A stretch of 64,000 nt of DNA from positions 1 to 64,000 of the IMG/VR virus record IMGVR_UViG_3300008261_000084; one strand, written 5' to 3'. Made by a program: the position numbers and the translations under genes. Below, piece after piece: positions 8,820-53,800 of the stretch (its first letter is position 1; each line of letters starts with the position of its first letter). Below the pieces are notes generated by a model. The model had not been told where the DNA came from. It saw only the letters and a list, made by a program, of their open reading frames with translations, and made no database searches. This DNA comes from a virus.

Positions 8820-10835
8820 ATGAAACCGTTAAATTTAAATAGCCAAAATTGTTCACCTATATCTTCAAACTGTGTTGTTTGGGAAGGGCCTAATATGCCA
8901 TGTATTAAATTATGCAAAGGTGATACAATATCTGACGTAATTGCTGAACTTGCAAATAAGTTATGCTCTTTATTTGATTCATTAGATGCTACATCATATG
9001 ATACAACATGTTTAGAATTAACTAAACAACCAAAAACAACTCAAGAATTAATACAAGTATTAATTGATAAAATATGTGACTTATCAAAAGCACCTGGTCC
9101 AAGAGGACCTGTTGGTCAAAGAGGTATAACTGGTCAACCAGGTACACCTGGTCCTGAAGGTCCGAAAGGAGATCTGGGCCCTGAAGGTCCAGAGGGTCCA
9201 GAAGGTCCAGCAGGTCCTCCAGGACAACCAGGTCAAAGAGGTGAAAAGGGTGATCCTGGTCTTCAAGGAGGTAAGGGTGATAAAGGTGATAAAGGAGATA
9301 AAGGTGAACAGGGTGAACAGGGTGAGAAAGGTGACCAAGGTGAAAAAGGTGAAAAAGGAGATCAAGGAGACAAAGGAGACAAAGGAGACAAAGGAGATCA
9401 AGGAGACAAAGGAGATCAAGGGGAAGTTGGCCCTAAAGGATTGGTTGATGTAACAACAAATTGTATAGAAGGTATTACTTCAAATACTGACATATACGCA
9501 TATGTTGATGTATCATCAGGTCCATATAGTAATGATTCTTGTGGTAGTGATGCAGATACAAATAGAAGTCTTCTATTTGTTGCAGTTAATGATTGGTATA
9601 ATGCATATAAATTAGCAAATCCTGATTATACAGGAAATCTTTACATATTTGTAGTTAATCAACCTGAGAATTATTTAAAGTGGCCTAGAAAAATTATAGA
9701 AGGAACTTTTACTGGTTTACTTCCATGGAATAGTGGTCCGCTTCCAAATCCTTCTCAAGTTATATGGATAGACCCAGCAACAGGTACAGCTGGTGATACT
9801 TATGCACCTTCTAATTTTGATACTGCAAACACTGGTCCAAATCCTTTGTGGGTTCCACCAACATCAATATTGTATATAGCATTTGTTAATGAATCTAATA
9901 TACCATCAGGTTATGAAAATTCTGATTATTATACATACCATGGTACTAATGCTATTCCTTCTTTAACAGTAGATCAACTACAACCAACATTAGGTTGGAC
10001 AACAGATTATAATGAGTTTACTTCTGATTATGCTGATCACTGGACTTTTTTTAAAGGTGTTATTTATCCTGTATATTGGTCAGGTTCTGCAAATCATGCT
10101 AATAACTTTTTATTACATGCATATGCAGCAACAACAAATGATGATATATCACTTACAGGATTACAGACTACACTAGGAGCTAATTACGATGCAGGGGTTT
10201 TTGGAGGTGTAACAGTTGGTCCTGGTTCTAACTTATATAAAACAAATAATCAAGGTTTATGGGATTATGGATGGTATTCATTTTTAGATAAAACATCAAG
10301 CGGTTGTAGTATAACATTTACAGCTACAGAATTTGCAGAGGATCTTGATTCTATACTTTACACTCCCGGTTTTGATACAGCTTCAATTATTGATAGTTGG
10401 GATTCTGATTCAGGAGTATTAACTTTAAAAGGTATAACATCAAGTTCTTTAGAAATTACTGATAATGATGGTTGTGTTCAAATTGAATGTGGTGACTGTG
10501 GTGCATCTACACATCTTTCTGTAAGAGTTCTGCCAGTGTGGGATGAAAACTCTTTAATTGCTTATCCTAGCGGTGCCGTAGGTGAAGTACTTTATTTTTG
10601 GGAGTTTGCTCAATCATATCCTTTACATGAATTTACAACACCTACCAATTTACAAACTGTTGGTTATACTCCTTGGCTTGTAGGAGGTGACTATAAACTT
10701 TATGGTGATGCTAATACTAATAATGCTTATTTTTATATGACATTAGCAAAAGTTAGTATTACAGATAGTTTAGGACGTAGTGCTTATGATACATATATGT
10801 TAATTAATGCTGATATATTTCAAAATAGACAATAG
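8820..10835 (+). CDS. Collagen-repeat tail/head fibre protein
   Basis: N-terminal Cys module shared with 10902..12773; about 38 consecutive Gly-X-Y triplets; globular C-terminal domains. Confidence 0.85.
9096..9440 (+). repeat. Collagen Gly-X-Y coding repeat with 9-bp tandem units
   Basis: GPR GPV GQR ... GDK GDQ; tandem GGAGACAAA/GGAGATCAA units at about 9357-9420. Confidence 0.9.
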
Positions 10836-23400: not shown

Positions 23401-26014
23401 CTTAGCTGCAGATGTAACAAGATTTAAAACAGAAGACCAGTTCTATATTGATAGCAATATTCAATCTGTTTCAAGATACCAAGATGATACAGGTACTTGG
23501 AGATCTTATAATATTAATAATGTTAAAAGAACTCAAAAGGTTGTAGTAAGAACTAAAAATGGTGCTAATAAAAACAAAGGTCCTAAATTATTGTCTGGTG
23601 ATTTATCATTAACTACTTTAGGTACTTTACGTCAAGCTAATTTTGCACCTTACTTAGCAAGTACAGACTTACCTGATTTTAAAGGTGGTGTCAATAAAAC
23701 ATTTTCATTGCCAATTCAAAGTCACTATGGTGCTCTTAGAGGTAGAGTAAGAAACCAGTATGGTCAATTAGATTCTATTAAGCAATTACCTGTAGGAACA
23801 TGTGAGCAAAAAATTTCAGACTACACTATTAATAACATAGATTTAGTTTGTAATTCAAAAAATATAAAGAAAAAAGTTATTAATAGATCTCCACTAATGT
23901 TTGGTGGTGATACTTATATTAACAGATACACTGAAAAAGACAGTATGTGTTTCTTTTATGAGTGGTTATATAATGAACCAGATGGTTTTGAATATAATTA
24001 CTATTTGAGAAGTATGCTTCCTAATCCAAGATTTAGATTAAACAGTAGAAAATATGATATTCAAGATTTAGCAAGTGCTGTAAATGTTGAAACTATTTTA
24101 CAAGGTTCTTCTGTTACAGCTCCTCCAGGAGAAGGTGTAATGCCTTCAGATTTTTATAATCTTGATTATTATGAAAATGGTTCTAAAAAATATAATTACT
24201 CTAATGATACCGCTGCAGATTATCCTGGATTTTTTGTTTGTAAAGATTCAGCATTTTATTTAGCTGTGTCATCAATTAAAGATTTCTTTGTAGAATCTGA
24301 AGTACTTGTAGATTTTAGAACACAACCTGAAACAATTGCTAAGAAGTATTACAACCCTTATAATTTTACAGATTATAATTCTATGTTTGATACTAATCCA
24401 AATGTACTTGGAGAGAATAGTTCAAACTTATATGATTATTCATTAAGTGTGAGTAAGTTATATAATCAGTATTTTTCATTAGGTGTTGTACAAAGTAGGT
24501 ACTATGATCCAAATGTATCTGACTTATGTTATACTTACTATCCTAATAAGATTATCTACTCTTTACAACAACAAGATGATATGATAAAAGATAGTTGGTT
24601 TGTATTCTTAGCTAACAACTATAAATCATTTAAGTCTCATATTAGTGGTGTTAAGTCAATAAATAAATCAGGTATTGTAATTACATTTAAGAATGACAAC
24701 CCTATAATGTATCAGGGTGTAGATACTCTTCAGACTGATTTAGGTACAAAGGTTACTTTAGGTGACGGAGGTTTATTTAGTCAAGCTGCTCAACAATTAA
24801 GTAACGCTGATAAACCATATGAGTATGGAGCATCTCAAAACAGACTATCTGTAATATCTACACCTGTAGGTATATTTTACATGTCTCAAGCGGCTGGTAA
24901 AATATTTTCAGTTGGTGACGGGCTTCAAGAGATTTCTCAGCAAGGTATGAAATGGTGGTTCACACTTTTCTTACCGTACAAACTTTTAGTAGATTTCCCA
25001 TTATATCCATATACAGATAACCCAGTAGCAGGTATAGGATGTCAATCTGTATTTGATAATACAAATACTATTCTTTACTTCTGTAAGAAAGATTATCAAT
25101 TAAAAGATCAGTATAAAGGAAAAGTTACGTATGTACCACTTAAAGGAGATAGTACAGGTGATTACTTTATGATCAATGGTAATAATACAGCTCAGTTTAA
25201 ATTAGGTGACCCAACACTATTTAGAGATGCTTCTTGGACTATTAGTTATGACCCTAAGAATCAATTCTGGATTAGTTTCCATGACTGGCATCCGGATTTA
25301 TTAATGCCTACAAAAGATGTATTTATATCTACAAAAGGTACAGGAGGTTGGAGACATAACTGGATCTGCGATAAATACTGTAATTACTATGGTGTTGACT
25401 ATGCATGTGAAATTGATGTACCAATTGTAACAGGTCAAACCGTTACTACTACAAGATCCATTGAGTATATTTTAGAAGCTTATAGAAAAACTGATAACTG
25501 TGTGGATTCTCATCATGTACTAGATTATAATTTTGATACAGCTGTTGTGTATAACTCAGAACAAGTATCCGGTTATTTAAATCTTAACATTTATCCTAAG
25601 AATGATCTTGTACTTGCAAGACAGTTCCCAAGAGTAAATCCAGCTACTTTAACTTCATTTGATGTTTTATTTACAAAAGAAGAAAACAAATATAGATTTA
25701 GTCAGTTTTGGGATATAACAAATGATAGAGGTGAGTTTCCAATTGGTTCTCCGTATCCTGCAGATCAAGGTCCATATGTATCAGGTACAACTACTTTGCT
25801 TGGTACTTATAATAACTTAAACACTTGGATTACAGAACCTGATGGATTCAGAAGAGTATTGAATCAAAATAATCTTGATTACTTCAAACCAGAATTTCAA
25901 AGAAAAAAATTCAGACATTACATGAGTTTTGTTAACTTCAAGAAAAATATATCTGGTAATACCAATATTATTTTGAAAATCAATAATAGTAAAAATGAAA
26001 TTTCTCTAAGATAA
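20462..26014 (+). CDS. Tail stabilisation / muzzle protein (P22 gp10-like, Crassvirales)
   Basis: 1850 aa; F.KGLNKD N-terminus, VYWSDGLNP.R, YMRDEVYSF, FGGDTYINRY, WTISYD....WISFHDW motifs; synteny. Confidence 0.75.
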   Translation: MSDKLQDTSQNVTDSFIKGLNKDSDPSYVTDGMWTHAVNMVNNSKTGKVGSISNESANYLCFNTGLFMAAGATEKLVIGTIYLFSDKWIIFTAGHNSFGQPVSAEIGLFEEENCSYKPIVIDPCLNFDRRHLISGVSRLREDCTWQVYWSDGLNPDRYLNVGDPQTWPGPDYSYMGSVGANANYYEGPGGTKILWPNVQWNEECKDENNQIVPKANYTAVGCITCKNLNTLDCDHIRLARLMKTPCLKLKRGQQGGTLANGTYFALIAYTVKGQKVTDYFAQSNYQFIYSPQNLQGSLTLEISADNENFDEFQLVIVKCVREQTVAQLMGIYSTNTSTLSFDQIDSGSNISEPLEQLPLQTPVYETSDQMAEVNNYLLRIGPRSKFNFNYQPLANLIKTKWASVEYPADYYMKGGNKTNYMRDEVYSFFIRWVYNTGDKSPSFHIPGRPPRDFAVPNGVTQKEDSDLTTNQNSLYADDKVFEVYNTASIDNVSTLVGTKTDDGGEVIATGDMGYWQSSEKYPDNRADIWNPSNHCWTGETTNAYDLCGKYIRHHKFPEDYTAGNNSASVTHFRINPTPKNNSNDYYIRLMGVYFENIALPKDNDGNDIPGIAGFEILRGSREGNKTIVAKGLVNNFRTYQIPGTGGFSATGLYPNYPFNTIQPLSNTLGGNVAGYNDPYIKAGVSSLYNQTVPDDIFSFHSPDTMIRTPFLSTTEFKTYGQLSGYTQQNFNIPTDHPKFKLLSDVVVIPMIFGGLAEAIISMVGKRTSVSPGPAYQDIQIPEVQGEEIKGNAINGTPITGGASGSANNNGAIAIVAGVTNGTLAMVENVVYTPLSGGSISGGEISGGDIKTDPKRASDPGQFATVLSGFTGAKTGYNLGGAIIADALAGGGGLEAVYTNAAKAGTYIDGGVYTGLTLNTEYAQSQYLPKVLAIANNIGKIAYYFSEGARVTLDLIYAVTGYKQFALQQKAYGFYSNMDKNLAADVTRFKTEDQFYIDSNIQSVSRYQDDTGTWRSYNINNVKRTQKVVVRTKNGANKNKGPKLLSGDLSLTTLGTLRQANFAPYLASTDLPDFKGGVNKTFSLPIQSHYGALRGRVRNQYGQLDSIKQLPVGTCEQKISDYTINNIDLVCNSKNIKKKVINRSPLMFGGDTYINRYTEKDSMCFFYEWLYNEPDGFEYNYYLRSMLPNPRFRLNSRKYDIQDLASAVNVETILQGSSVTAPPGEGVMPSDFYNLDYYENGSKKYNYSNDTAADYPGFFVCKDSAFYLAVSSIKDFFVESEVLVDFRTQPETIAKKYYNPYNFTDYNSMFDTNPNVLGENSSNLYDYSLSVSKLYNQYFSLGVVQSRYYDPNVSDLCYTYYPNKIIYSLQQQDDMIKDSWFVFLANNYKSFKSHISGVKSINKSGIVITFKNDNPIMYQGVDTLQTDLGTKVTLGDGGLFSQAAQQLSNADKPYEYGASQNRLSVISTPVGIFYMSQAAGKIFSVGDGLQEISQQGMKWWFTLFLPYKLLVDFPLYPYTDNPVAGIGCQSVFDNTNTILYFCKKDYQLKDQYKGKVTYVPLKGDSTGDYFMINGNNTAQFKLGDPTLFRDASWTISYDPKNQFWISFHDWHPDLLMPTKDVFISTKGTGGWRHNWICDKYCNYYGVDYACEIDVPIVTGQTVTTTRSIEYILEAYRKTDNCVDSHHVLDYNFDTAVVYNSEQVSGYLNLNIYPKNDLVLARQFPRVNPATLTSFDVLFTKEENKYRFSQFWDITNDRGEFPIGSPYPADQGPYVSGTTTLLGTYNNLNTWITEPDGFRRVLNQNNLDYFKPEFQRKKFRHYMSFVNFKKNISGNTNIILKINNSKNEISLR

Positions 26015-29000
26015 TGTATAATAAAAAAGTTCTCTCCACAGCAAAGGCGGAGCTTAATAAAGCTAAAGCTCCTAAGAAACCTAAAGATATGATCACTGAT
26101 CGAATGGGTCAGTGGAAATATCCTGGGTTAGATACCAGAATTCCTGGTGATGGTTCTAAAGATATAAACATTACAATGGATGGTGTCTACAAACCTTTAC
26201 TTGCTATAGCAGATACAGGTGAGAAAAAAAAGTTATATCCTGGAGACAATCATACATTCCGTGGTGCTAAATATGTAGATGAATTTCCTGAAGCTAAAAG
26301 GGGCGGTAACAAAAAAAGAAAAACTAAAAGCTTATCAGGAACTAATAAGTTAATGCAAAAGAATCCTTTGCTCAGAGATTACAAGAACAGAGAATTTGAT
26401 CCAAATGTAGATTACTTTCAAGAAGGTGGTGATATAAATTTAGAACTTACACAAGATGAAATTGATCAATACGTAAAAGGTGGTTATATAGTAGAAGACA
26501 TATCTGTACCAGAACTTAATCAAGCTCAGAAAGGTAAAACTGTAGAAATATCTGACCCTAAAGAATTTGCTTATAGAAACCAAAAATACAAGGATAGTTT
26601 AGATTTATATAACTATTCAAATAAACAAGTAGTAGACAAAACTAAAAGATTTGGTTCAGATGCTATAGGTGTACAAAAAGAATATAATAAAAAAAAGGCT
26701 GCTGAATTTTTAAAAGAACAATTAAAAACATATGGTGATTTAGCACATGATCCAAAAGATAAGTATGGTAAGTTAATTACTAAACTTGTAAAAAAATCAA
26801 ATATATCACCAATAGGGTTAAGTATTAATGTTGAAGATTATGACTATATATTTAAAAAACCTGCACAAAAAGTAGTACTTAAAAAAGAAAATACACCTGT
26901 TCAAGATACTATAATTCAAAAACCTGTTGTACAGCAAGAAGTAAAACCTGTTATACAACAAAATATAAAACCGGTTCAAAAAACAGATTACCCTCAAGGT
27001 TATCAACCATACTCATTATATGGAAGAGTGCTAGATCCAGAAGTTTATGGGTATGGTGAATCTATAAATGGTAAACCATTAGAACTTGCTCAAGGTGCTG
27101 ATATGATGCTGAAAAAAATGCAGATGGAAAAATATAAAAAGGCTAATAAGTATCCATGGGTTAAACAAGAAGGTGGCAATATAAAAACACATAGAAGTAA
27201 AGACGGTACTGTTACTAATACAATTACTAAAGCTAATGGTGATACTGTAATACAGGTTAAAACTAAAAATGGTAAGTATTATGAAAAGCTTATTAAAAAA
27301 AGTGATGCCTTAGATACATTATCAAAATTACAAGGTGCTGTTAAACCTGAGTTTTTAGCATTGGGTAAGGCTGAAGCTGAAACTAAAAGAGAGGAGAAGC
27401 AAGCAAAACAAAAGTTTTTAAAAGAAGCTTGGTCTAATTATGATGATTGGTCTACTTCAGATAAAGTATCTGATAGAGTAGGAGCATTTCTGAATGATCC
27501 ATTTGGAATGACAGCAAGAGCACTAACAGGAGATCAAGCTTATATACCAGGTATGGCTCAAGGTTTACATAACCATGAAGATCCTGAAGTAAGAAATAGA
27601 TACTTAAAAGAATTAGGATACACTCCTGGAGAATTTGATGCTTCTGATGTACAGAACATGATTAACCCCGGTTACTGGGCTAGTTCATTTGTTGAAAATA
27701 GCAGAAAGGGTAATGTTGGTACAGCAGCATTAGAGGGAGCACTAATGTTCCTACCGCACTTACCTAAAGGTACTGTAAGTAAATCTAACATTAAATCTGG
27801 TGCAAAGCTTTTAGCTGATGATATAGTTAATAAAACACCATTAAAAAATACATACAAGATATTAGGAAAAGATACAAAGTTTTATAATCCTGGTGAAAAA
27901 CCACATTGGTTAAAAGGTTATACAGAATCTTGGAATCCTATGGAAGCAGATTTAGAACCACTTGCGGATTTTAGATTAAATGAAGCAATAAAAAATTTAG
28001 AGAACAAAAAGATATTTAAAGAACATGACGCAGTAAATAATAAATATTCACAAATACTTAATAATTTAAGTGAACAAAAAAAAATTGCTTTAAAGGCAAA
28101 TAATACAAAAGCTGTATCAGAAATCAATGCTGAATTAGATGATCTATTTAATGCAAGACTTAAAGAGCATAATAAAATTGCACGAAAACATTTTCAATCT
28201 AAAGAGCATCCTTTTGAAGAACAAATAGGTGCTGGTGGTTTTGGAACTGTGTATGGTTTACCTGAATCAGAATTTGTGATTAAAGTAGGGCAAGTTCCAA
28301 AAAATGAAAGTATATTAAAATTAGTAGAAAATTCTAAAGGTATTAATAAACCAAACATTGCTTTGCCAAAAAGAGCTAGTGCTACATCATCTGGTGAAAA
28401 GGTAATAGTAATGAATAAGGTTGAACCTGTTGAAGGTAATATTTTTACAAACCCTCCGACTAAAGAAAGTTATGAGCAATTAATAAAGGATGTTGAAGAA
28501 TTACAAGGTAAAGGAATTTATCTTGATTTTGAGAATCCACAAAATATACAATACAATCCAAAAACCGGTTTATTTAATATATATGATTTAAATACAACTG
28601 GTCATATTTTACACAAAACTGTTCCTAAAAATAGTTATAATGCTGGTGAAAAAACTATAGAACAATTACTTATTGATAATAAAAAATTACCTAGTGATTG
28701 GGGAAGTATAGCAAGTAGTAAATCTAATGCTGCAAATGAATGGGAAACAACTATAAGTAATTTAACAAGACCAGTAGGTGAAATACCATATAAGCCTGAA
28801 TTTAATACAAATGCTGCTAGTAAATTATATAGCTTAACTCATGAAAGAAAACTTCTTTTTGATACTCCAGAAGGTGAGAAAAGAATTAAAGATTTAATTG
28901 AAAATACACCAGAATTAAAAAATTCAGGATTTACTGTTGATGATTACAAAAGAGGTTTAGATGACATAACTAATGTTAATCTTCATTATCATAGATTATA

Positions 29001-31089
29001 CAAAGATTATACTGATTTAGAAAAAGCTCTTGAATATGCAAAAAATGTTGGGGGTGCTGATAAACAAGCAATATTAGATATGAATACCCAACTTGGTAAA
29101 ATGTCTTTTACACTTGCAGATTATGAAAAATTTATTCATGAACCAAAATGGTATTTAAATGCTTACATGAATAGAAAAGGACAACCTTCTGTAGGATTAA
29201 TAAAACCAGGAATACATCCAAAAGACAATTTTGATATTTTTGCAAATCCTCATTTAAATGACTTGGATATTTTAAGAATTGGTAGACATGAACTAGGTCA
29301 TTATATACAAAGAGGTGCAAGAACTAATTTAGATGATGAACTATCTAAAATATCTTTATTAGATGAAAATCCAAATATTAAACATATACCTTTTAGTGAA
29401 TCACAAGGTTCTTCAAAACTTCATCAACTCATTATGAGTGCTGAGGATCCGTTTAAGAAAATGAAAAAATATTGGAAATCTGCTGCTAATGGTAGAGAGA
29501 AAACACCATTTATAGAAGAAGTAAGAGCTGATCTTTTAGAAGAAGGTGTAATAAATAATTTATATGATGAAGTTACTCCTGATATGCTTGAATATCATTA
29601 CATAAATTATTTAAAAAAACAAGGTAATAAATATCCATTAAGAATTTTTGACTTGATGGAAAACAAACCTGAGAATTTTAAAATCATGTCTGATGTTATA
29701 AATAAGATGCCAGCAGTTGCACCTATAGTAGGTGGTGCAGGAGCAGCGGCTATTATGGGTAATGAGCAAGGACAAAAGAAAGAAATGAAGAAAGGTGGTA
29801 TTGTTGCTGATCTTACTGAAAAAGAAATTAGAGAATACACTGCAAGAGGATATATTGTTGAAGAGGATGATGATGAATACCAAGATGGTGGAGAAGCTGA
29901 GGCAATAAGCAACATTAGACGTAGACAAAAAGAAATAGCTGATTTAAGAGCTAATTCAAACATGTCAGAGGAAGTAAATCAAACACCTACTCAAGTACCT
30001 GTTCAAAAAACTATTGTTATTAACAAAGAGCCTATCAAACCACTTGTTAGAATTGCTGTTTCAAATAAACAAATTGAAAAACCAAAATCAACTGTAGTAA
30101 ATAAACCTATTGTAAAAACATTTGAAAAAAGTAAAGTAAAAGCAGAACAGAAATTAAATCAAAAACAAATAATACAACAAGTACAAGCAATCAAAAAAGA
30201 CTTAAAAGCTTCTTATTTACCTAATGCACCAAAAGAATTTTACAATCAGTTTGTAGAAAAACCGGTAACTAAACATGTTCAAACACCTAAAGCATTACAT
30301 AGTGATAATAAAACTTATGCTGATGAATTAAAAAGAATGATGAGAGCAATTGAGGAGGATGATATGATGGCATTAGTATCTGGAACAGAACCTAAACCAA
30401 AACCATTGTTTGAAAATTCTAACATTGAAAAAGAAATATTAGACAGACAGAAGTTTGATAATACTCATTATGGTAGATTTGATACAAGAGGTGATGATGT
30501 AATGAATAGAACAGATGTAAAAAGAAATAGAGACTCTGAGTTATTCTTTGCTAACATGGCTAAGAACAATTCTGTTATAGTTGACATAGGTTCTGCTTTA
30601 GGAAATAACAATCCTTCAATGGCTGGTGTTTCTGTATGGGAGTTAGCAAGTAATCCTCAAATTAAAAAGAAAGGTATTAATGTAATTGCAACAGACTTAC
30701 CGGATCAGATAAAAGATTTTAAGAAACATGTTAAGAATAAAAAAGCATATCCAATAGATTATGCGGAAGTTCCTGAAACATTTAACACTCCTATAGCAGA
30801 TATATTAAAATCTAAAAAGTTAGATGATAAGAAAGATGTATACCTTAGAGCAGCAAACAGTATTGACTTACTAATGAATACAGAGCAAGCAATAGAGCAC
30901 TTAAATCATATTGCAAAAACACTTAAAAATAAAAATGTAACGTACCTTTATAATAATGTAATATTATTTAAACCAGAAGGTAGTAAAACTTTTAAAAAGT
31001 TAGGTAATTTGAATAATGCAGGATTTGACCATAACAATAGAACATGGGTTAAAAACAAAAACAGAATCCCATATACCTTAAATTTTTAA
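26014..31089 (+). CDS. Polyvalent virion cargo protein with kinase-like, zincin and methyltransferase-like cassettes
   Basis: N-domain GQWKYPG..TRIP..ITMDGV..; GAGGFGTVY/VIK/DxxNxxN/YDL (28210-28600); HELGH (29287-29301); VIVDIGSA...ATD...RAANS (30574-30860). Confidence 0.7.
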   Translation: MYNKKVLSTAKAELNKAKAPKKPKDMITDRMGQWKYPGLDTRIPGDGSKDINITMDGVYKPLLAIADTGEKKKLYPGDNHTFRGAKYVDEFPEAKRGGNKKRKTKSLSGTNKLMQKNPLLRDYKNREFDPNVDYFQEGGDINLELTQDEIDQYVKGGYIVEDISVPELNQAQKGKTVEISDPKEFAYRNQKYKDSLDLYNYSNKQVVDKTKRFGSDAIGVQKEYNKKKAAEFLKEQLKTYGDLAHDPKDKYGKLITKLVKKSNISPIGLSINVEDYDYIFKKPAQKVVLKKENTPVQDTIIQKPVVQQEVKPVIQQNIKPVQKTDYPQGYQPYSLYGRVLDPEVYGYGESINGKPLELAQGADMMLKKMQMEKYKKANKYPWVKQEGGNIKTHRSKDGTVTNTITKANGDTVIQVKTKNGKYYEKLIKKSDALDTLSKLQGAVKPEFLALGKAEAETKREEKQAKQKFLKEAWSNYDDWSTSDKVSDRVGAFLNDPFGMTARALTGDQAYIPGMAQGLHNHEDPEVRNRYLKELGYTPGEFDASDVQNMINPGYWASSFVENSRKGNVGTAALEGALMFLPHLPKGTVSKSNIKSGAKLLADDIVNKTPLKNTYKILGKDTKFYNPGEKPHWLKGYTESWNPMEADLEPLADFRLNEAIKNLENKKIFKEHDAVNNKYSQILNNLSEQKKIALKANNTKAVSEINAELDDLFNARLKEHNKIARKHFQSKEHPFEEQIGAGGFGTVYGLPESEFVIKVGQVPKNESILKLVENSKGINKPNIALPKRASATSSGEKVIVMNKVEPVEGNIFTNPPTKESYEQLIKDVEELQGKGIYLDFENPQNIQYNPKTGLFNIYDLNTTGHILHKTVPKNSYNAGEKTIEQLLIDNKKLPSDWGSIASSKSNAANEWETTISNLTRPVGEIPYKPEFNTNAASKLYSLTHERKLLFDTPEGEKRIKDLIENTPELKNSGFTVDDYKRGLDDITNVNLHYHRLYKDYTDLEKALEYAKNVGGADKQAILDMNTQLGKMSFTLADYEKFIHEPKWYLNAYMNRKGQPSVGLIKPGIHPKDNFDIFANPHLNDLDILRIGRHELGHYIQRGARTNLDDELSKISLLDENPNIKHIPFSESQGSSKLHQLIMSAEDPFKKMKKYWKSAANGREKTPFIEEVRADLLEEGVINNLYDEVTPDMLEYHYINYLKKQGNKYPLRIFDLMENKPENFKIMSDVINKMPAVAPIVGGAGAAAIMGNEQGQKKEMKKGGIVADLTEKEIREYTARGYIVEEDDDEYQDGGEAEAISNIRRRQKEIADLRANSNMSEEVNQTPTQVPVQKTIVINKEPIKPLVRIAVSNKQIEKPKSTVVNKPIVKTFEKSKVKAEQKLNQKQIIQQVQAIKKDLKASYLPNAPKEFYNQFVEKPVTKHVQTPKALHSDNKTYADELKRMMRAIEEDDMMALVSGTEPKPKPLFENSNIEKEILDRQKFDNTHYGRFDTRGDDVMNRTDVKRNRDSELFFANMAKNNSVIVDIGSALGNNNPSMAGVSVWELASNPQIKKKGINVIATDLPDQIKDFKKHVKNKKAYPIDYAEVPETFNTPIADILKSKKLDDKKDVYLRAANSIDLLMNTEQAIEHLNHIAKTLKNKNVTYLYNNVILFKPEGSKTFKKLGNLNNAGFDHNNRTWVKNKNRIPYTLNF

Positions 31090-31139: not shown

Positions 31140-32819
31140 ATGGAAAGAAAAAGAGTTAGAATTTACAAAGCTCCTGATGGACAAGGTGAATATAGATCAA
31201 AGCTTAAATCATTTGTTACTGCACAAAAAGGAATATCTGTGGATGATTCTGCTATGCATAGAACTCCTGATGAAGCCTTAAAAGAAAATGCTATCACTAC
31301 TTATGTGAAATATGTTAATACTCAGCTTAAAGATGGTATGTCAATTCAAGGAATCTATAAGGATTTACTTGAAAAAGGTTTAGCTGAAGAAGAAGCGGCA
31401 GGGTTATTAAAGTATTTTGTTCAAAATAATTTAGAAGGTACACCAGAAGCAAGTGAAGAAAAGCAACAACAAGAAGGACAATCTGCTGAACAACCTACAA
31501 TGCAAGAAGGTGGGGCTGCTGAACAAATATTATCTCAGTATGATGCTGAGAAAGGTGCTTCATTAGAAGATGATGAAACAATAGATTTAATGAAACTGTT
31601 AAAAGAACCTGCTGAAAACTATTTATCAGAAATGCAAAATAGTTCTAAGGTTTATTTTCCAGGTATTTCAGATTATATATTTGACTATAAACCTATTGAG
31701 TTTATGGATCCAACACATAGCAATGTTTATCCTGGTTTACAACAAGCAAAAAAAGGAGGAGTTTCTAAAAAGAGCTTTGTTAAAAATGTTTTGGGTCGCT
31801 TTAAGGAAGGTGGTGAAGATGAACCTGCTCAACAAGGAGACAAAATGGATACAATGACTTCTGAAATAAGTAACAGAAAAAATTCTTTTATTGCTAAGTT
31901 AAAGGAAATCAATGAGGAAGAGAAAATAAAAAATCTCTATGATCAAATGATGGAAACTAATGATCCGGGGTTAATGCAAACTGCGCAAACTCTTGCTGGT
32001 GGAAATGGTGGTGTAGGAGAAGACAATGAAGAAAGCTTATCTTATCAACAATCCGGTGGTTACTTAGGAGAAGGACAACCTGAACTATTTATGAATGGTG
32101 GTGTTGATTACCCATATGAGTTAGAACAAGCTCAAGAAGGAAAAGAAAAAAGAAAAACAAAAGTAAAATATGTTGACAATCCAACATTACCATCATCAAA
32201 ATTAAGATTGTTTAATCCAGTTTGGGGTGAAAGAAAAGTTTATAGTAATAGACCATATAACGCATTAACAAGAGAACTTTATAGAGATCCTGTTGATGAT
32301 TTAACTCCTGTTGCAAGAACTGTACATAAGAGAGGTATATTTGGTAGACCTAAAAAGTGGACTGATTACTATTCTAAAGATGGTAAATTAATGGTTCCTC
32401 CAGGTGCAACAGACATCACTACTAAAAAAGATGAGAAAAAATTAATAAATGATCAGTCAGAAGAATTATGGGATGACTTATCAGGTAAAGCTAAAAGAGC
32501 AATAAGAAGAGGTGAGAGAAGATTAAATAGAAGAAAAGGTTATGAAGATGAAAAAGAACTAACAATTCAAGAGTTAATTGCTTTACAAGAAGAACAAAGA
32601 AAAAAAGAAAATGATAAATCATACAAAGAAAGAAAAGATGCTATAGAAGCAGATGATAAAAGAAAAAAAGACTTTGGTAGAATTGATGATCCTGAGCGTA
32701 AAAAAGCAGACTGGGAAACTATTAATGATAGAATTAATGGTAAACTAGAAGAGTATGTATTCTCAACAATTAGCAAACCAAATGGGTTATGGAGTAAATT
32801 ATCAAAACATATTAGATAG
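31140..32819 (+). CDS. Acidic low-complexity virion cargo protein, 5' part
   Basis: 559 aa with multiple xxxGG motifs; overlaps the next ORF by 65 nt in a different frame. Confidence 0.7.
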   Translation: MERKRVRIYKAPDGQGEYRSKLKSFVTAQKGISVDDSAMHRTPDEALKENAITTYVKYVNTQLKDGMSIQGIYKDLLEKGLAEEEAAGLLKYFVQNNLEGTPEASEEKQQQEGQSAEQPTMQEGGAAEQILSQYDAEKGASLEDDETIDLMKLLKEPAENYLSEMQNSSKVYFPGISDYIFDYKPIEFMDPTHSNVYPGLQQAKKGGVSKKSFVKNVLGRFKEGGEDEPAQQGDKMDTMTSEISNRKNSFIAKLKEINEEEKIKNLYDQMMETNDPGLMQTAQTLAGGNGGVGEDNEESLSYQQSGGYLGEGQPELFMNGGVDYPYELEQAQEGKEKRKTKVKYVDNPTLPSSKLRLFNPVWGERKVYSNRPYNALTRELYRDPVDDLTPVARTVHKRGIFGRPKKWTDYYSKDGKLMVPPGATDITTKKDEKKLINDQSEELWDDLSGKAKRAIRRGERRLNRRKGYEDEKELTIQELIALQEEQRKKENDKSYKERKDAIEADDKRKKDFGRIDDPERKKADWETINDRINGKLEEYVFSTISKPNGLWSKLSKHIR

Positions 32820-34248
32820 ACCTACTAATCCAAACAATCCAAATGAGCAAAGAGCTAATTTAGAAGAAGATATTCTTAATAGAGAAATTAATGCTGCTGA
32901 AAATGCTGGTTATGATTTATACGGTGATCTTAATACTTACATTCCTGCTGATGAGAGAAACACAGTTTCTCCTGGCACATATCAATTTACTCCTGGTAAA
33001 TCTAAAACACGCGCTGCTGAAGAAGCAAGAATTGCAGCTGAGATGGAAAGAGAGCGTGAAGCAGAAGAGTGGGAAAGAGATATGCAAAGAAACACAAGAA
33101 AACAATTAGGTGGTTTGCCAAAAGCTCAAATAGGTGTTAAGTCACCTACTAATGGTGTAAACCCTGCTTCAGATCCTACAGCTAATAAACAAAATTGGTC
33201 TGGTGTTTTGAATATGAATAATCAACCTAAGAAGGAAGAATTCCAATTCCCAATGAAAATGGAAGCACCTGCTGAAGAAAAATCTGCATTACCCGATTGG
33301 TTAAATAAAGATACTTGGATGAATTCATTGACAGAAGATAAAGATGAAACTACTGAAGAGAATCCTGATTTAATTGCACAAGATTTTGAATCTAAAAGAG
33401 ACTTTAATGGAGAAGCTTTTAATCAAAAGCTGAATGCAGGTATTGATGCTTTTACAGGTCTTGCTAAAAGAATGGATACCAATAGACAAATGGCTGATTA
33501 CTATGCTAATAATAGTGGTGTAGATTCTTTCATGAATCCACAAGAAGCAAAATTAAAAGGTAAGTTTGTTGCATATGGTCAAGAAAGTGGATTGATAGAC
33601 CCAACAAAAATGGGTAATGAGAAAAACAGCATATTTGCTGGAACTAATAGTGCTCGTTCTGGTGGTTACATGCAAGATGGTGGACAATCTAGAGAGGAAA
33701 TTTTAAAGCAATTTACAGGTACACCTGAGTTTAAAAGAGGTCTTGACTTAATGATGCAAAGAGATAACACTGATAATGGTGATCCATTCTATGATGCAAT
33801 GAGAGAGGCTAATTATACTGAAGAAGATCAGAATAAATACCGTGAAGCTATTGGTGAAATGAATAATCCTGAGTGGTTAGAAAGAGTACCTCAAAAAAGT
33901 CCTTATATTAAATCTGGTAGACAGAGAGAGTTACAAGACTTAATGAATAAAGCTTATGGTTCAGAAAGATATAATACTCCATATGCAGTTGGAAGTGGTG
34001 GGCCAAGAAGAGAAGATGAGCGATACATTCCAACACCTGAAAGAAGACCTACACCATTTGAAGATGGTAGAGTTGATCCTAGAACATTAGAAGCAATTCA
34101 ACCTGGTGCAAATGAATATGAAGGTATGCAAATAGGTGGCTATATGGAAGAAGAAGGATATGCTGAAGGAGGTGTATTTGATATGGATGAAGATGAATTA
34201 AGAGAATTCCTTGCTAACGGGGGAGAAGTTGAATATTTAGAATCTTAA
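32755..34248 (+). CDS. Acidic virion cargo protein, probably the 3' part of the preceding gene
   Basis: 497 aa in the +1 frame with the same composition and motifs; the frame opens only at 32749 and has no A-rich leader. Confidence 0.6.
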   Translation: MYSQQLANQMGYGVNYQNILDRPTNPNNPNEQRANLEEDILNREINAAENAGYDLYGDLNTYIPADERNTVSPGTYQFTPGKSKTRAAEEARIAAEMEREREAEEWERDMQRNTRKQLGGLPKAQIGVKSPTNGVNPASDPTANKQNWSGVLNMNNQPKKEEFQFPMKMEAPAEEKSALPDWLNKDTWMNSLTEDKDETTEENPDLIAQDFESKRDFNGEAFNQKLNAGIDAFTGLAKRMDTNRQMADYYANNSGVDSFMNPQEAKLKGKFVAYGQESGLIDPTKMGNEKNSIFAGTNSARSGGYMQDGGQSREEILKQFTGTPEFKRGLDLMMQRDNTDNGDPFYDAMREANYTEEDQNKYREAIGEMNNPEWLERVPQKSPYIKSGRQRELQDLMNKAYGSERYNTPYAVGSGGPRREDERYIPTPERRPTPFEDGRVDPRTLEAIQPGANEYEGMQIGGYMEEEGYAEGGVFDMDEDELREFLANGGEVEYLES

Positions 34249-47825: not shown

Positions 47826-50800
47826 ATGAATTGTAATACCGTAACTGCATTATCCCAAGAGCAAATCAGTAGTGTATTTGCTCTACTTTACCGTGAAATT
47901 CTTGATCTAAGAAATAGTGGTAAACCATTTAATTTTGATGTTCAAGAATTTACAAAGTCATTATACAAAAGTGTTAATGATGCTGTAGGGGCTCAAAAAG
48001 CTATGGAGTATGCTCAGGCTGTTCCACAGTTAGTGTATTTATTAGGTAATACAGAACTTAGTGACTATTTGGTAGATAATAATTTTAGTATGGATAAAGT
48101 ACTAAAATTGAAAAAAGATTTTAATAATATCAATAAGGTAAAAGAATATATCTTAGATGATGTTAAAACTGCTGCTGAATTAAAAAAAGAAAGCCAAAAC
48201 ATTAAAAAAGATTCTAAAAAACTTACAATAAAAAATCCAAGTGAAAACAGCAAGATTGCTCAAAGACAATGGACTAATGGAGCTAAGATTTTATTTCCTT
48301 TAGCTACTACATTTCAAGCAGCAATCTTTGTTAATCCTTATGAAGAAGGTAACTTAAATGAATTAGACAGAGAGAAAGCTTTATTTTATCAAGTGATAAA
48401 AGACCTTGTTTATTATGCAAAGGATGCTAATGAAGAAGGTGTTGTATTCTATGGTACTACTCCGGTTGCTCTTATGGCAATGCCTGCAGGTTCATTACCA
48501 TATGAATATAAAACCACAACAGATAAAGAGTGGCAAGATAAAAATGGTAATGACCCTTCAGAAATGTATGGTGTATTAACAGATACAGAAGGTAATCTGT
48601 TATATTTTACAGAATCCGGGGAAATTACCAATGACCCAACTAAAGGTAGAGTTATATATCAGTATTTAAGAAAACCTGTTTTAGAAAAAGGAGAACTTAT
48701 TTTCCGTAACCGTTCTGGTTATTCTTCTAATTTAGTTAGTGCACAAGATGTTTTAGAAAATGAAATTAAAAATGGTGTTATCTATCCTTCAGAAGAAGCT
48801 AGAAATGTAAGATTACAGCAGATTAAAGATCAACAAAGACTTCAAATGAATGCTTTATTTACTTTAAGAAATCTTATTACTGAAACACAAAGGCCTGTTA
48901 TGTTAAACATAACTGGTGGTTCTTTTGGTTTATTTACACAAAGTGCTCCCGAACCTACACCTGTAAAATTTACAGAGATAAGTGAGGCTGCTATTAAAGA
49001 CTATGATTACATAGAAACTGGTGCAATGAGTGGTCGTATTAAATTCAACTACACTGTTAAAAGACCTGGGGGAAATATTCAACAAACTATTTATCTTGAC
49101 AGAGGTAAATTTGATGAAAACTTAGCTGAAAAAGTAGCTGAAGTTCTTACTACAAAAGCAACACTTAATGGTGAAGAATTAACTCCTGTTCAAAAAACTA
49201 AATTCTTTGAAGTATTTGTATTTAACAAACTTGGCGGTAATGAGGGGATTTATGTTACTAGTGCTAGAGATAAACTTATTGTTAAAATAAATGGTAAAGA
49301 CATTCCACAAAAAGTATTATATACTCCTGAAGGGAAAGAGTTAATTAAAAAGCATTTGTTGGCTAAAAAAGTTCTTGAATTAAGTAAAAACAAAGATACT
49401 CAACCAGTTAATGTTCATTATAATAAGAAATACAAAAAGGATAAGTTTACTGATTATGAAATAAATGGTGATAAAATAACAGCAAAATTAGTTGACCATT
49501 TTGAAGTAATTAAACCTTACATGTCAATTGTATATGCTGGTGATGAAGCTGCATACTTTAATGGTTTAAATGCTTATTTAACTTTTAGTATTCCAATGGA
49601 GCTTTTAGGTGAAATAAGTAATTATGGTTTAGGACAAATTGCTTCTTATACAGATACTAATAAAACAACAAAATCCAAATCAAATTGGAACAAAACTAAA
49701 TCTAAAGCAGAACCTAAACTTACAAGAGCTGATTATATTAAAGCTGCTGCAATAAAAAAAGCAGAAGAACAAAAAGCAGGTGCATCACTTAAAAGAAATA
49801 CTAAAAAAACTCTTACTCCAAAAACTGCACCTACAACTGAAAAAACTACACCGGCTGAGAAAAAAAATATTGATAAAAAAATTCTTTCTGATAGACCAAA
49901 ACCAATTTCAACTGATGTATTGGGTATTGGTGAAAAAGTAGTACGTAAAGGTTTGTTTGAAAGAAACAGAAAGTTAGGAAACTTTCTTGATAGAGTATTT
50001 ACTACTAAAGCTGATAGAGAAAAAGCAGAGTTATGGTGGAAAAGTTCTCCATTAAGTAAATACATATCTTTAGAAAGAATTACTGAAGTTGTAAACTCAG
50101 ATGCATTTGCTACTTTTTATAACAGTGGGATCACATTATATGAGGGTGATGGTGGTACTTCAGTGGATATTTACCATGAAGCATGGCATGCATTTTCTCA
50201 AATGTTTCTTACACCAGAAGAGAAGTTTAAATTATATGATGATTTAAGAGCTATTCCTAAATGGGCGGATGCACAATTTGTAGATATTGAAGAAGCTATT
50301 GCTGAAGATTATAGAGACTATGCTAAAAGCAGAGCTAGAAAAGAAGCACCTAAAGGATTTTTGGGTAAAGTATTTGAGAGAATTTACAACTTCCTACAGA
50401 ACCTCTTTAAGAATGTAAAGAGAAGTGAATTAGCTTCAAGACCAAGAGATATTGAATCAATCAAAGTAATGTTTGATAATTTATACAAAGCATCTGAAAA
50501 CCCGGACTTTTTAGAAAATTTTAAATACTCAACTGAAAATATAGAGTTCACACAAGTTTTAACAAGAGCTAAAGAAAACATTACTCCTCTTAAATCTGTG
50601 AGTAAAGATGTTTCAGAATTTAGTGCTGAAGAATCAGATAAAGTTGCTAAGTTAATTGATAATATTATTGGTGATATTTTTTATACAAATAACTCAGTAT
50701 CAAATATATCAACTACTCCAATTAAAGTATTATTTAACAATAACAATAGAGTAAAACTTTATGAAGCTGTGTTTGATTATTTAGAAAACTTATGGTCAAT

Positions 50801-53800
50801 AAAAGTTGAGGAAGAACAAGCTTTGTTTAATAAAAATTTAAATACTGAAGTATTATCAGACAAAGATGCATTTGAACAAAATCAACTTTCAAGTATTGTA
50901 AGTTTGATTGGTAGAGCACTTGAGAATTTTGGTGACATTGAGGCATCAATAAATAGAGAGCAAAAAACCGGTGTTGTTGCATACCATTTAGATAACTCTA
51001 CATTTGAAGTATTAAAATCTAACTATATTGAATCAGAAGATGATCCAACTATCTTTAAAGTAGACAGTGGTAATATTCAAAACTCAAAAGATTTAGCAAG
51101 TACTGTTACTAAAACTATACTATCAAGTGTATTTAAAATTAAGAGAACTGAAAATAAAGAATTAGAGTATGTGTATGATGAGTTTGGTTTTAAAGAACTT
51201 GAAGACTATGATGCTATCTGGAACAAACTTGCAAAAGTATTAGAAGGATCTTTTGATAAAGAAGAGATTTACAAAAGACTTAAAGAGAATGAGCAAGACT
51301 TTCCAGAATTTTATCAGTTGCAAACTTTGTTGCCTGCTTTAGGAGATGTTTATGAGGATAAACTAGCGTTTAATGTAGCAACAAGTTTCTGGCAAGATTT
51401 GAAGAAACCAAGACTTTCTTATTACCAATTAAATTTAAATGAAACTGGTGAAGGTAAAACTGGAGGATTTGAGACTTTGTTATCAAGAAGTAGATTTGAT
51501 ATCAGTCCTGTAATAGGTGACTGGGAAACTGATTTTATACTTGCAAAACCAGGTGCAAACAAATACATAAAGAAAGCTGCTAATGGAGTTAACTTATTGG
51601 ATGTTGTTGCTATTGCTAATGATTTTGTAGATAAAACAACAATGAATTTAAACCCAAGAAAAGCTCAAGAATTTTTAAAAGCTCTTGGTATTAAATTGGA
51701 CATGACAAGCCCTTCTATTAGAGAAGAAGTTCAAAGTCCAAACTTCATTAGAAAATTTGGTTTAGATTTCATATATGGTGCTATAAGACAAGTTGCATTA
51801 GCAAAACCGTCAGATGAGCAATTACAGTTTAGATTAAAACCTTTTTACTATTTAAGAAAAGGATTACCTGAACTTCTTAGAGAAGACAAAGAAAAGTCTT
51901 TGGAAGTTAGAAGTAGATTTAATGCATTAGCTGAATTACAAATACAGTATTCAGATAAGTATTCAAACTTTAGTACTTTAAGCCCTGAAAGAAATAGAGT
52001 ATGGGAACACTTTGTAGATAATACAGTTACAAGAGTGTTAACTTCTATGAATCATGCAAGCAACTGGTTTGAATTAACAGATGAAGCTGCAGATGCAAAT
52101 GACAGATTTAAGCATATGCGTTGGTTATCTACTGATAATAATACATACACTCCTTTTTCTATTTTGATAAGAAGTATGTATGATATAAATACAGGAGAGA
52201 AGAAAGATAATAAAGCTGTGTTATACAACATGGCCGGAACACAGATCATTACCAAAAATGCTAATGAGGTAGAAGGTACTTCCACAAGTTCATTAGATGC
52301 ACCAAGTAAGTTTTTACAAGAAATGCATACAATGTTGCTTCAAGGTTTTGAGGAATTCATGCGTCATGCATCTAAACAAACTGCTCAGGGGATCACAATG
52401 TCAAATAAAATTGAAACATATCCTACAAAAGAAAAAAATAGGTTGTATGTAGACATTAAAGATTTTGCTCCAGGTAAAGATGGTGAGAATGATGCTTACA
52501 ATATTATAAAAGGTTACTTATCTGGAGAAGCAAACAGAATCTTTAGATTCCAAATGAATCCAGAATTTAAAAACTGGACAGGTTACAACAGAGATGTAAC
52601 AAGAAAAGACAAGAAGAAAACAAAGACAATGGCCGGTAATGCATTTACTGCCTTTGATGATGTTCTTACAGAAGATGTACAAGATGAGTTATATGCAATA
52701 ATAGACAATGCTGTTAAAGAAAAAAATAAAGACTTTGACATGTATGAGATATTAGAAAATAACCCTGTTTTAAATAGAAAAATTAAAGCTGATGTAAAAG
52801 AATACTTCAATAAGTTAAACGGTAAAGTAAGTAAGATACTTAACAATACTAAGTTTATTGATAAAAAATTATTGAATGAAACTTTTACTGAAAATGTAAG
52901 ATTGAAACCTGAAGAAAAAGAAGACATGCTTTTAAAAGCATATAACTATAATTCTTGGATTCATAAATTTGAAACAACCATTCTTGCATATGGGGATTTA
53001 GCACAGTACAATCATGCTAAAGAAGAGTTCCATAAAAGAAATGCCGGATTAGGTTCTGGTGGTTTAAGTTTTGGTAATGATATCAAAGACTACAAATATG
53101 TAAACTCTTTGAAAAAGTATTATGCTGATGCTAGAGGTATTGACTATAGAGATTATGATGGTACTATTAATACTGCAATTCTTAAAGAAGCAGCAAAAGA
53201 TAGTATTTACTATAATGAATATAGAGAAGCTTTAGTAAAAGCATATACAGAAAGATTAGGAGATGCTAAAAAAGCCATTCAGCTTGCTGATACTGCATTA
53301 GGAGAATATTTTAATGGTAAAGGTTCTCAAATGAAGATTGGTGATGGTCAAGGACATGTTACTATGGAGATGTACAGAATCTTGAAAAATCTTGAAGGTA
53401 AATGGTCTGATGAACAAGAAGAACTATATAAGAAAGTATCAACTGGTGAGCCAATTCAGATTGAAGATGTGGTTAAATATTTCCCACCTTACAAATTACA
53501 GTATTTTGGTAACATCAAAACAGAAGGTTTACCGGTAACTTCATTTCATAAATTCTCTCTTGCGCCAATAGTTCCAGGTGTAGCTAAACCAGGTACACCA
53601 CTATTTGAACTTCATGATAAAATGATGAAGGATAAAGTAGATTATGTTGTATATGGAACAGGTTCCAAAATTGCTCATATTGGAACAGGAGATGAAATAT
53701 TTGATGACAATGGTAAAGTAATTAAAGATTCTGAGTTTACAGTAAATACTATATTCAGTGAGTTCTTAAAGAACCAAACTGAAATTAATGATGAGTATAA

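Follow-up and report, generated by a model that had tools for sequence, protein, structure and literature searches.

We analyzed a 64,000-nucleotide window of an IMG/VR virus contig (positions 1 to 64,000 of IMGVR_UViG_3300008261_000084, a record of 84,452 bases that is rated 70% complete) and focused on one gene at positions 26014..31089 of the + strand. This intact open reading frame (ORF) encodes a protein of 1691 residues (aa), here labeled P0001. The window has a G+C content of ~31%, and every large gene in it is on the + strand. An earlier reading of the DNA (the original prediction) had described the product as a polyvalent effector with swappable enzymatic cassettes and had quoted ten motifs from it, all of which are where it placed them. 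P0001 carries two modules without an assigned fold plus kinase-like, HExxH, tag and appended methyltransferase-fold parts, and such cassettes are exchangeable between near-identical relatives behind a constant N-terminal module.

The protein was divided into modules, all encoded on the + strand. The constant N-terminal module (26014..26433; aa 1-140) ends in FQEGG, is common to 118 collected proteins and is a candidate virion-incorporation or anchor piece. A first copy of a junction tag (copy A, 26413..26502; aa 134-163) reads FQEGG-DINLE-LTQDEIDQYVKGGYIVED. Module M2 (26542..27183; aa 177-390) ends in KQEGG and occurs in 25 collected proteins, where the order is sometimes different. Module M3 (27184..27849; aa 391-612) includes a weakly hydrophobic segment, GTAALEGALMFLPHL (27718-27762; aa 569-583); M2 and M3 are the two modules to which no fold was assigned. 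The kinase cassette (27850..28734; aa 613-907) has its core at 28216-28599 (aa 735-862). The HExxH cassette (28789..29784; aa 926-1257) consists of a helical N-terminal part, a core and an Ala/Gly-rich hydrophobic tail, MPAVAPIVGGAGAAAIMG (from 29707; aa 1232-1249), which holds the quoted motif MPAVAPIVGG (aa 1232-1241). Junction tag copy B (29785..29892; aa 1258-1293) reads MKKGG-IVAD-LTEKEIREYTARGYIVEE...YQDGG and is followed by a Lys/Pro/Gln-rich spacer without a family match (29893..30408; aa 1294-1465), the end of which (aa 1440-1459) is of low confidence in an AlphaFold2 (AF2) model. The last part, at 30409..31086 (aa 1466-1691), is the domain with an S-adenosylmethionine (SAM) methyltransferase fold of class I, recognized by its model and its conserved motifs.

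We searched aa 667-1196 against 1.84 billion representative sequences and obtained 138 matches, which divided cleanly into two independent domains. For the first of these, the kinase-like one, an alignment of 26 sequences gave the consensus LGxGxxGxVY...VxKxG...M...L.DKG...D..NP.NI.YN..TG.F.IYDLN. The profile built from it had 321 matches in the PDB at E<10, and the best 60 of the 321 are protein kinases without exception. The top matches were twitchin (3.6e-4), SteC (8.7e-4) and NleH1 (1.2e-3), followed by Cdc7, CK2 and a Legionella effector. The alignments begin at the Gly-rich loop, include the catalytic loop and end at the DFG position, the same elements as in twitchin kinase. In P0001 these correspond to the Gly-loop IGAGGFGTVY (28225-28254; aa 738-747), in which GxGxxGxV occupies aa 739-746, to VIVMNKV (aa 797-803), to the catalytic loop KGIYLDFENPQNI (28510-28548; aa 833-845) and to IYDLN at the DFG position (aa 856-860). 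Conservation was counted over 51 domain instances: G739 is kept in 47/48, G741 in 48/48, G744 in 45/48, K757 in 47/48, D838 in 49/50, N844 in 50/50 and D858 in 49/50, and N841 is also kept, so that the full kinase catalytic set is present. The catalytic loop has the form (Y/L)xDxxNPxN, with YLD where HRD is expected. Single members of the alignment matched Pkinase, ABC1, APH and FTA2 weakly. Only ~50 residues remain between D858 and the cassette border, too few for a canonical C-lobe; some short homologues, possibly fragments, stop within ~10 residues of D858. Kinases of this kind have been described in the polyvalent proteins of Bacteroidetes phages (Iyer et al. 2017, PMC5512222). The profile matches and the conserved residues thus support the prediction that aa 613-907 house a minimal protein-kinase-like domain.

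The AF2 model of the C-terminal domain (predicted local distance difference test score, pLDDT, 77) has a seven-stranded sheet with the strand order of class I methyltransferases. Foldseek returned eight matches at E≤0.001, every one a SAM methyltransferase (seven belong to class I, and the other is DOT1L), with probabilities of 0.97-1.00. The top matches are cap-N7 enzymes (E 1.4e-4, probability 1.00), and most of the lower rows are methyltransferases as well. Motif I, VIVDIGSALG (30574-30603; aa 1521-1530), is a variant in which DIGSALG stands for DxGxGxG and Ala replaces the middle Gly. VIATD (aa 1557-1561) places D1561 at the end of strand 2, D1582 is located at the end of strand 3, and the RAANSID of YLRAANS (aa 1610-1616) lies on strand 4. 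D1524, G1526, G1530, D1561 and D1582 are invariant (30/30 homologues). No Pfam methyltransferase family matched P0001 at E≤1, and a phmmer search of the PDB with the single domain sequence found no methyltransferase; a protein atlas, used for leads only, placed methyltransferase clusters at 0.90-0.92. A DNA amino- or C5-methylase is unlikely because the (D/N)PPY and Pro-Cys motifs are absent from the domain. The model and the invariant residues support a class I SAM-methyltransferase fold for aa 1466-1691, as had been predicted from the Rossmann-like motifs.

The HExxH motif lies in RHELGHYIQ (29284-29310; aa 1091-1099), and the collected proteins contain 121 instances of this domain. H1092, E1093 and H1096 showed no exception in 112 homologous domains (112/112); E1162 (111/111), E1169 (108/111) and R1210 (109/109) are kept to a similar degree, and Y1153 and D1107 are nearly invariant. 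In the AF2 model of the cassette (pLDDT 77) the motif sits in a helix at residues 158-174 of the model numbering (pLDDT 85-97), and the conserved Glu residues begin a later helix. The modeled HExxH helix with a downstream Glu is a gluzincin pattern. PDB sequence searches with the HExxH profile and with the HExxH core gave no match, and the protein atlas, again as a lead only, placed this part near nameless viral clusters; LPD23, at 0.88, was a further lead from the atlas. We consider a zinc-peptidase-like active site likely, and the domain is probably a zinc metallopeptidase, judging by its conserved residues. The kinase profile matches, the invariance of HExxH and the methyltransferase fold together show that the quoted motifs exceed chance.

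The modules are punctuated by Gly-Gly (GG) seams at FQEGG (aa 134-139), KQEGG (383-388), MKKGG (1258-1262) and YQDGG (1289-1293). A core of 17 residues, LTxxEIxxYxxxGYIVE, comes after the first and the third of these, and the complete tag of ~25 residues (GG-hhxx-LTxxEIxxYxxxGYIVE) is present in 1-3 copies in 61/82 homologues. Two types can be distinguished. The first, …GGYIEAE-LTDDEIEEYRKGGYIVE, stands directly after the N-terminal module. The second, KKGG-IVAD-LTxxEIQDYIxQGYIVE, is often the extreme C-terminus of homologues; in P0001 it is followed by the spacer and then by the methyltransferase, as though the methyltransferase had been appended. The tag is disordered in the AF2 model and could function as an address, as a docking peptide or as a signal for cleavage. 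The neighboring ORF at 32755-34248 closes with a variant of it, GGVFDMDEDELREFLANGGEVEYLES (34162-34245), so that the tag is common to two adjacent genes and marks their C-termini.

We compared P0001 with its relatives to assess how the modules are combined. The whole-protein search listed 82 homologues including P0001, and the other 81 match in parts and in shuffled order. Most of the 81 contain the N-terminal module, and the remaining modules vary in number and order. Using six module profiles, we found 55 architectures among 94 proteins that start with the N-terminal module, and the architecture of P0001 is unique among them. On average 69% of the length of these 94 proteins is other sequence, and in homologues this other sequence comprises SET, ART-PolyVal, phage lysozyme, NlpC/P60, YkuD, transglutaminase and peptidoglycan-binding domains. 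No other module accompanies the N-terminal domain as often as the HExxH cassette, which usually stands directly ahead of a tag. The closest protein, P0002, is 82-90% identical to P0001 on both sides of an unrelated module of ~245 residues that replaces aa 615-916. This replacement module (aa 289-535 of P0002) recurs in P0118, P0194 and P0091; it did not resemble the kinase profile, and Pfam returned nothing for it.

The same exchange is visible in DNA that is otherwise almost identical. A contig of 3945 nucleotides from another study (run X3) agrees with the window at 26264-27806 and 28775-30364 apart from 7 and 3 differences, respectively, so that its flanks are >99.5% identical, and 812 different bases substitute for 27807-28774. 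Runs X3 and X4 have no read cover at 28076-28509, an observation to which we give weight only in combination with the X3 contig, which spans this gap. The architectures and the replacement of the kinase cassette in both P0002 and the X3 contig bear out the swappable multi-enzyme protein of the original prediction. Not every cassette border falls at a GG seam: the exchange points of the kinase cassette, at ~aa 613 and 908, are free of GG.

Comparison of the orthologous locus across relatives likewise revealed the expected constant N-terminal domain with variable cassettes. At two syntenic IMG/VR loci (L002 and L003) the flanking genes are 67-95% identical to those of the window, and the genes in the slot of P0001 encode 904 and ~1490 residues, both without the kinase and the methyltransferase. 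The L002 gene shares only aa 1-518 with P0001. The record that holds L002 (G001) is the closest complete relative, and none of the three cassettes was detected anywhere in its 121.7 kb at E≤1e-3. Since the record analyzed here has 84.5 kb, it is without ~30% of the genome, and the absent portion probably includes the terminase and portal genes. Downstream of P0001, ORFs 31140-32819 (559 aa) and 32755-34248 (497 aa) overlap by 65 nucleotides. L002 and L003 have a single ORF in their place (878 and 896 aa), the X3 contig has ~90 additional bases at 32756, and the X4 and X5 contigs terminate there; because of the single ORFs and the extra bases, the split probably reflects a small deletion or a mistake in the assembly and not two genes.

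The position of the gene was examined against known phage genomes. The ATG of P0001 overlaps the stop codon of the upstream gene (TAATG), which encodes a giant tail protein of 1850 residues. This protein resembles large virion structural proteins of Cellulophaga phages, Flavobacterium phages and one crAss-like phage. A protein of 3656 residues (47826-58796) had phage-collection matches only to crAss-like phages (96 records) and matches g066 of Cellulophaga phage phi14:2, a catalytic virion RNA polymerase subunit (E 1e-14). The local order is the tail giant, P0001, a second cargo-type gene and then giant polymerase-associated proteins. The same order is found in phi14:2 (g071-g070-g069-g068-g067-g066), where the record notes annotate all of these genes from virion tandem mass spectrometry (NC_021806.1), and an equivalent one in crAss001, with the muzzle (gp44), gp45, gp46 and the RNA polymerase proteins (PMC10172136). 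P0001 thus lies directly after the distal-tail giant and ahead of the C2 and RNA polymerase genes, which is the position of a C1 (gp45-like) protein, and because the gene order equals that of phi14:2 and crAss001 we regard it as the occupant of the C1 cargo slot of a crass-like phage. Metagenomes of lakes, freshwater and plankton from several studies contain near-identical DNA, and no RNA data set is listed for the gene. Searches with the gene and its region by tblastn and megablast found no cultured-phage match among 50,697 phage records.

Other genes of the record complete this picture. Genes for DNA polymerase, primase, helicase and exonuclease lie in a minus-strand block beyond the window. 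At 8820-10835 lies a gene for a protein of 671 residues with strong matches to collagen-like tail-fibre PHROGs (phrog_819, E 5.5e-28). The 3656-residue polymerase homologue has near its C-terminus (aa 3127-3353; 57204-57884) an AlkB-type 2-oxoglutarate-Fe(II) oxygenase domain (PF13532, E 3e-11), a further passenger enzyme on a cargo protein. The last protein of the cargo block (1716 residues; ORF 58801-63951) carries a C-terminal LysM peptidoglycan-binding domain (PF01476, E 7e-7) at aa 1643-1682 (63727-63846). PDB sequence searches of the 1850-, 2411- and 3656-residue neighbor proteins, and of aa 1-666 of P0001, gave no match.

Taken together, we assign a probability of about 0.7 to the interpretation that P0001 occupies the first cargo slot of an uncultured freshwater crAss-like phage as a polyvalent protein with a constant N-terminal module and exchangeable cassettes. 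P0001 would be made late, with the tail genes, be packaged into particles and be ejected before the DNA or together with it, by analogy with crAss001 gp45 and phi14:2 g066-g071. Its kinase and methyltransferase might then modify host or incoming phage molecules, and the HExxH domain could free the cassettes from the chain or attack a host target. We infer delivery with the DNA from the position of the gene and from these distant virion-proteomics precedents; a role in counter-defence or host takeover, as the original prediction proposed, would be a guess. A broader proposal, which we regard as unlikely, is that crass-like phages have a general enzyme-loading system in which the N-terminal module and the tag serve as address and seam, any enzyme cassette inserted between the two is packaged, the ubiquitous HExxH domain is a cis-acting protease that releases the cassettes in the host, and lake populations swap the cassettes as an arms-race kit on ecological time scales.

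Several results weigh against the cargo-slot interpretation. P0001 had no significant match in Pfam or PHROGs, only noise at E≤1, and sequence comparison did not reveal any resemblance to cargo proteins of crAss001 or phi14:2. The polyvalent-protein families Kinase-PolyVal (PF18762; E≤1 in the 70%-complete record and E≤0.1 in the 26 profile members) and MPTase-PolyVal (PF18818; in the same record) gave no match. Of the zincin called in the original prediction, the HExxH...E pattern stood; the fold and family were recovered neither by Pfam nor with the HExxH model by Foldseek against the PDB or by wide and second-look VIA searches, in which a long helical hairpin (model residues 1-120) dominated. 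The best BFVD matches of this model were crAss-like phage proteins and phi14:2 g070 (probabilities 0.99, 0.97 and 0.92; cr113_1 of a crAss-like phage at 0.99, and g070 at 0.97 with E 0.17), at E-values of 0.03-0.2 and a template-modeling (TM) score of 0.35; hhalign of the HExxH family against g070 aligned only 23 columns, around HExxH (E 0.07). Pfam metallopeptidase matches among the homologues were confined to P0200, where the match is weak (E 8.5e-4), and P0139. The DUF6782/Peptidase_M78 match in P0139 was rejected as zincin support, as it lies at aa 508-555, outside the part homologous to P0001 (153-266).

A possible refinement, held tentatively, is that P0001 is a virion polyprotein. Its HExxH domain, acting in cis, or a different protease would cleave it at the xxGG seams or the GYIVE tags, either as the virion matures or once the protein has been ejected, and the kinase, HExxH and methyltransferase parts would then act separately. 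Seams of the form aromatic/Met/Lys-x-x-G-G at the domain borders (138, 387, 1261 and 1292), the strong conservation of the tag and the frequent placement of the HExxH domain just ahead of it are consistent with such cutting. The tag (LTxxEIxxYxxGG) also resembles the double-glycine leader (LSxxELxxIxGG). Against cutting, no C39-type peptidase (Peptidase_C39 model) was found in the 70%-complete record. Tags of the second type are without the second glycine (QGY, RGY) and, when they form the extreme C-terminus, leave nothing to release, and the borders of the kinase cassette are without GG. Autoproteolytic release by zincin domains has been proposed for polyvalent proteins by Iyer et al. (PMC5512222).

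We think it rather doubtful that P0001 is instead a late intracellular factor that is not injected, either modifying or maturing virion or cargo proteins or serving as a structural component of the ejectosome or channel, in which case its enzyme folds would be of minor importance. The late structural operon and the translational coupling to the tail gene would suit this explanation, as would the two hydrophobic segments of P0001 and the proposal that crAss001 gp45 and gp46 form a channel (PMC10172136), and the lysozyme, NlpC/P60, YkuD and peptidoglycan-binding domains of the homologues suit envelope penetration. However, the catalytic residues of the three enzyme-like domains are under strong constraint, the homologues also carry ART-PolyVal and SET, which are typical host modifiers, and the cassettes are dispensable in the complete close relative G001, which fits accessory effectors better. 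That the three parts are decayed, inactive scaffolds in a long fast-evolving structural protein is very improbable: the lack of a Pfam family above threshold, the variant motif I and the YLD in place of HRD would agree with it, but among homologues that share 25-60% identity the exact catalytic positions hardly change, and the variation lies in the remainder of the domains.

We compared P0001 with systems described previously. The phage-type polyvalent proteins (Iyer, Burroughs, Anand, de Souza and Aravind 2017, PMC5512222) likewise combine several unrelated enzyme domains in one polypeptide, lie among virion genes and undergo shuffling, and P0001 shares with them its disparate activities in one ORF, its location among virion genes and its mosaic architectures. 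Domain types described there (C-lobe-less kinase, zincin-like peptidase, methylase) recur in P0001, and the homologue P0080 carries ART-PolyVal itself, whereas P0001 is without PolyVal or LPD Pfam domains. Its anchor is a distinct 140-residue N-terminal module, not MuF or a portal, its methyltransferase differs from the DNA adenine methylase-SNF2 dyad and is without the (D/N)PPY motif, and in its family the cassettes are punctuated by the conserved tag. The main text of that study mentions neither crAss-like nor Flavobacteriia phages (0 occurrences).

The crassvirus proteins of the same slot, crAss001 gp45 and phi14:2 g070, provide the second comparison. Cargo protein C1 (gp45) was found in crAss001 virions by mass spectrometry (Bayfield et al. 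2023, PMC10172136). P0001 is two to three times longer than these proteins, and accounts of the known crassvirus cargo proteins give them a channel or ejection role and do not present them as carriers of kinase or methyltransferase domains. phi14:2 g070 shares HExxH motifs with P0001 and resembles its HExxH model in BFVD. It (L005 10360-12141, - strand) and phi17:2 gp042 (L004 20350-22569) have two HExxH motifs each (HEFTH/HEFIH and HEFTH/HELNH, respectively) and several GG sites, under product names without mention of a peptidase.

Three further systems are more remote. NleH1/2, OspG-type kinases and SteC (PDB 4lrj, 4lrk, 4o96, 8jbi) are compact kinase cores of ~170 residues that are delivered into another cell, and type III effector kinases rank high in the profile search (E 9e-4 to 2e-2), a likeness that is remote and at the profile level only. 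They are bacterial proteins that act on eukaryotic hosts, and the (Y/L)xDxxNPxN loop of P0001 is without the His-Arg/Gly-Asp motif. MuF-linked polymorphic toxins, to which the original prediction had likened P0001, share the idea of variable phage-borne effector domains, but we found no similarity to them, and P0001 had neither a MuF domain by Pfam nor any other Pfam or PHROG head-protein match. T7 gp0.7 shares the idea of a phage kinase that acts on the host; no similarity to P0001 was found, and gp0.7 is the product of an early-expressed gene and not a virion component.

Crassviruses are among the most abundant phages, and their cargo proteins are regarded mainly as parts of the ejection channel plus the virion RNA polymerase. 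The class of polyvalent proteins is known, whereas these domain families, the N-terminal module, the tag and the use of the crassvirus C1 slot are absent from the literature that we searched. If P0001 is delivered with the DNA, crass-like phages would own a modular effector-injection system, the kinase and methyltransferase families unmatched by Pfam and PHROG would gain a likely early role in host takeover or counter-defence, and the constant N-terminal module and the tag would offer a candidate way to load foreign proteins into phage particles in laboratory strains. Compared with the channel proteins described so far, P0001 suggests that the first cargo slot can hold ready-made enzymes, namely kinase-like and methyltransferase-fold domains together with a probable protease, which are exchanged among near-identical natural populations.

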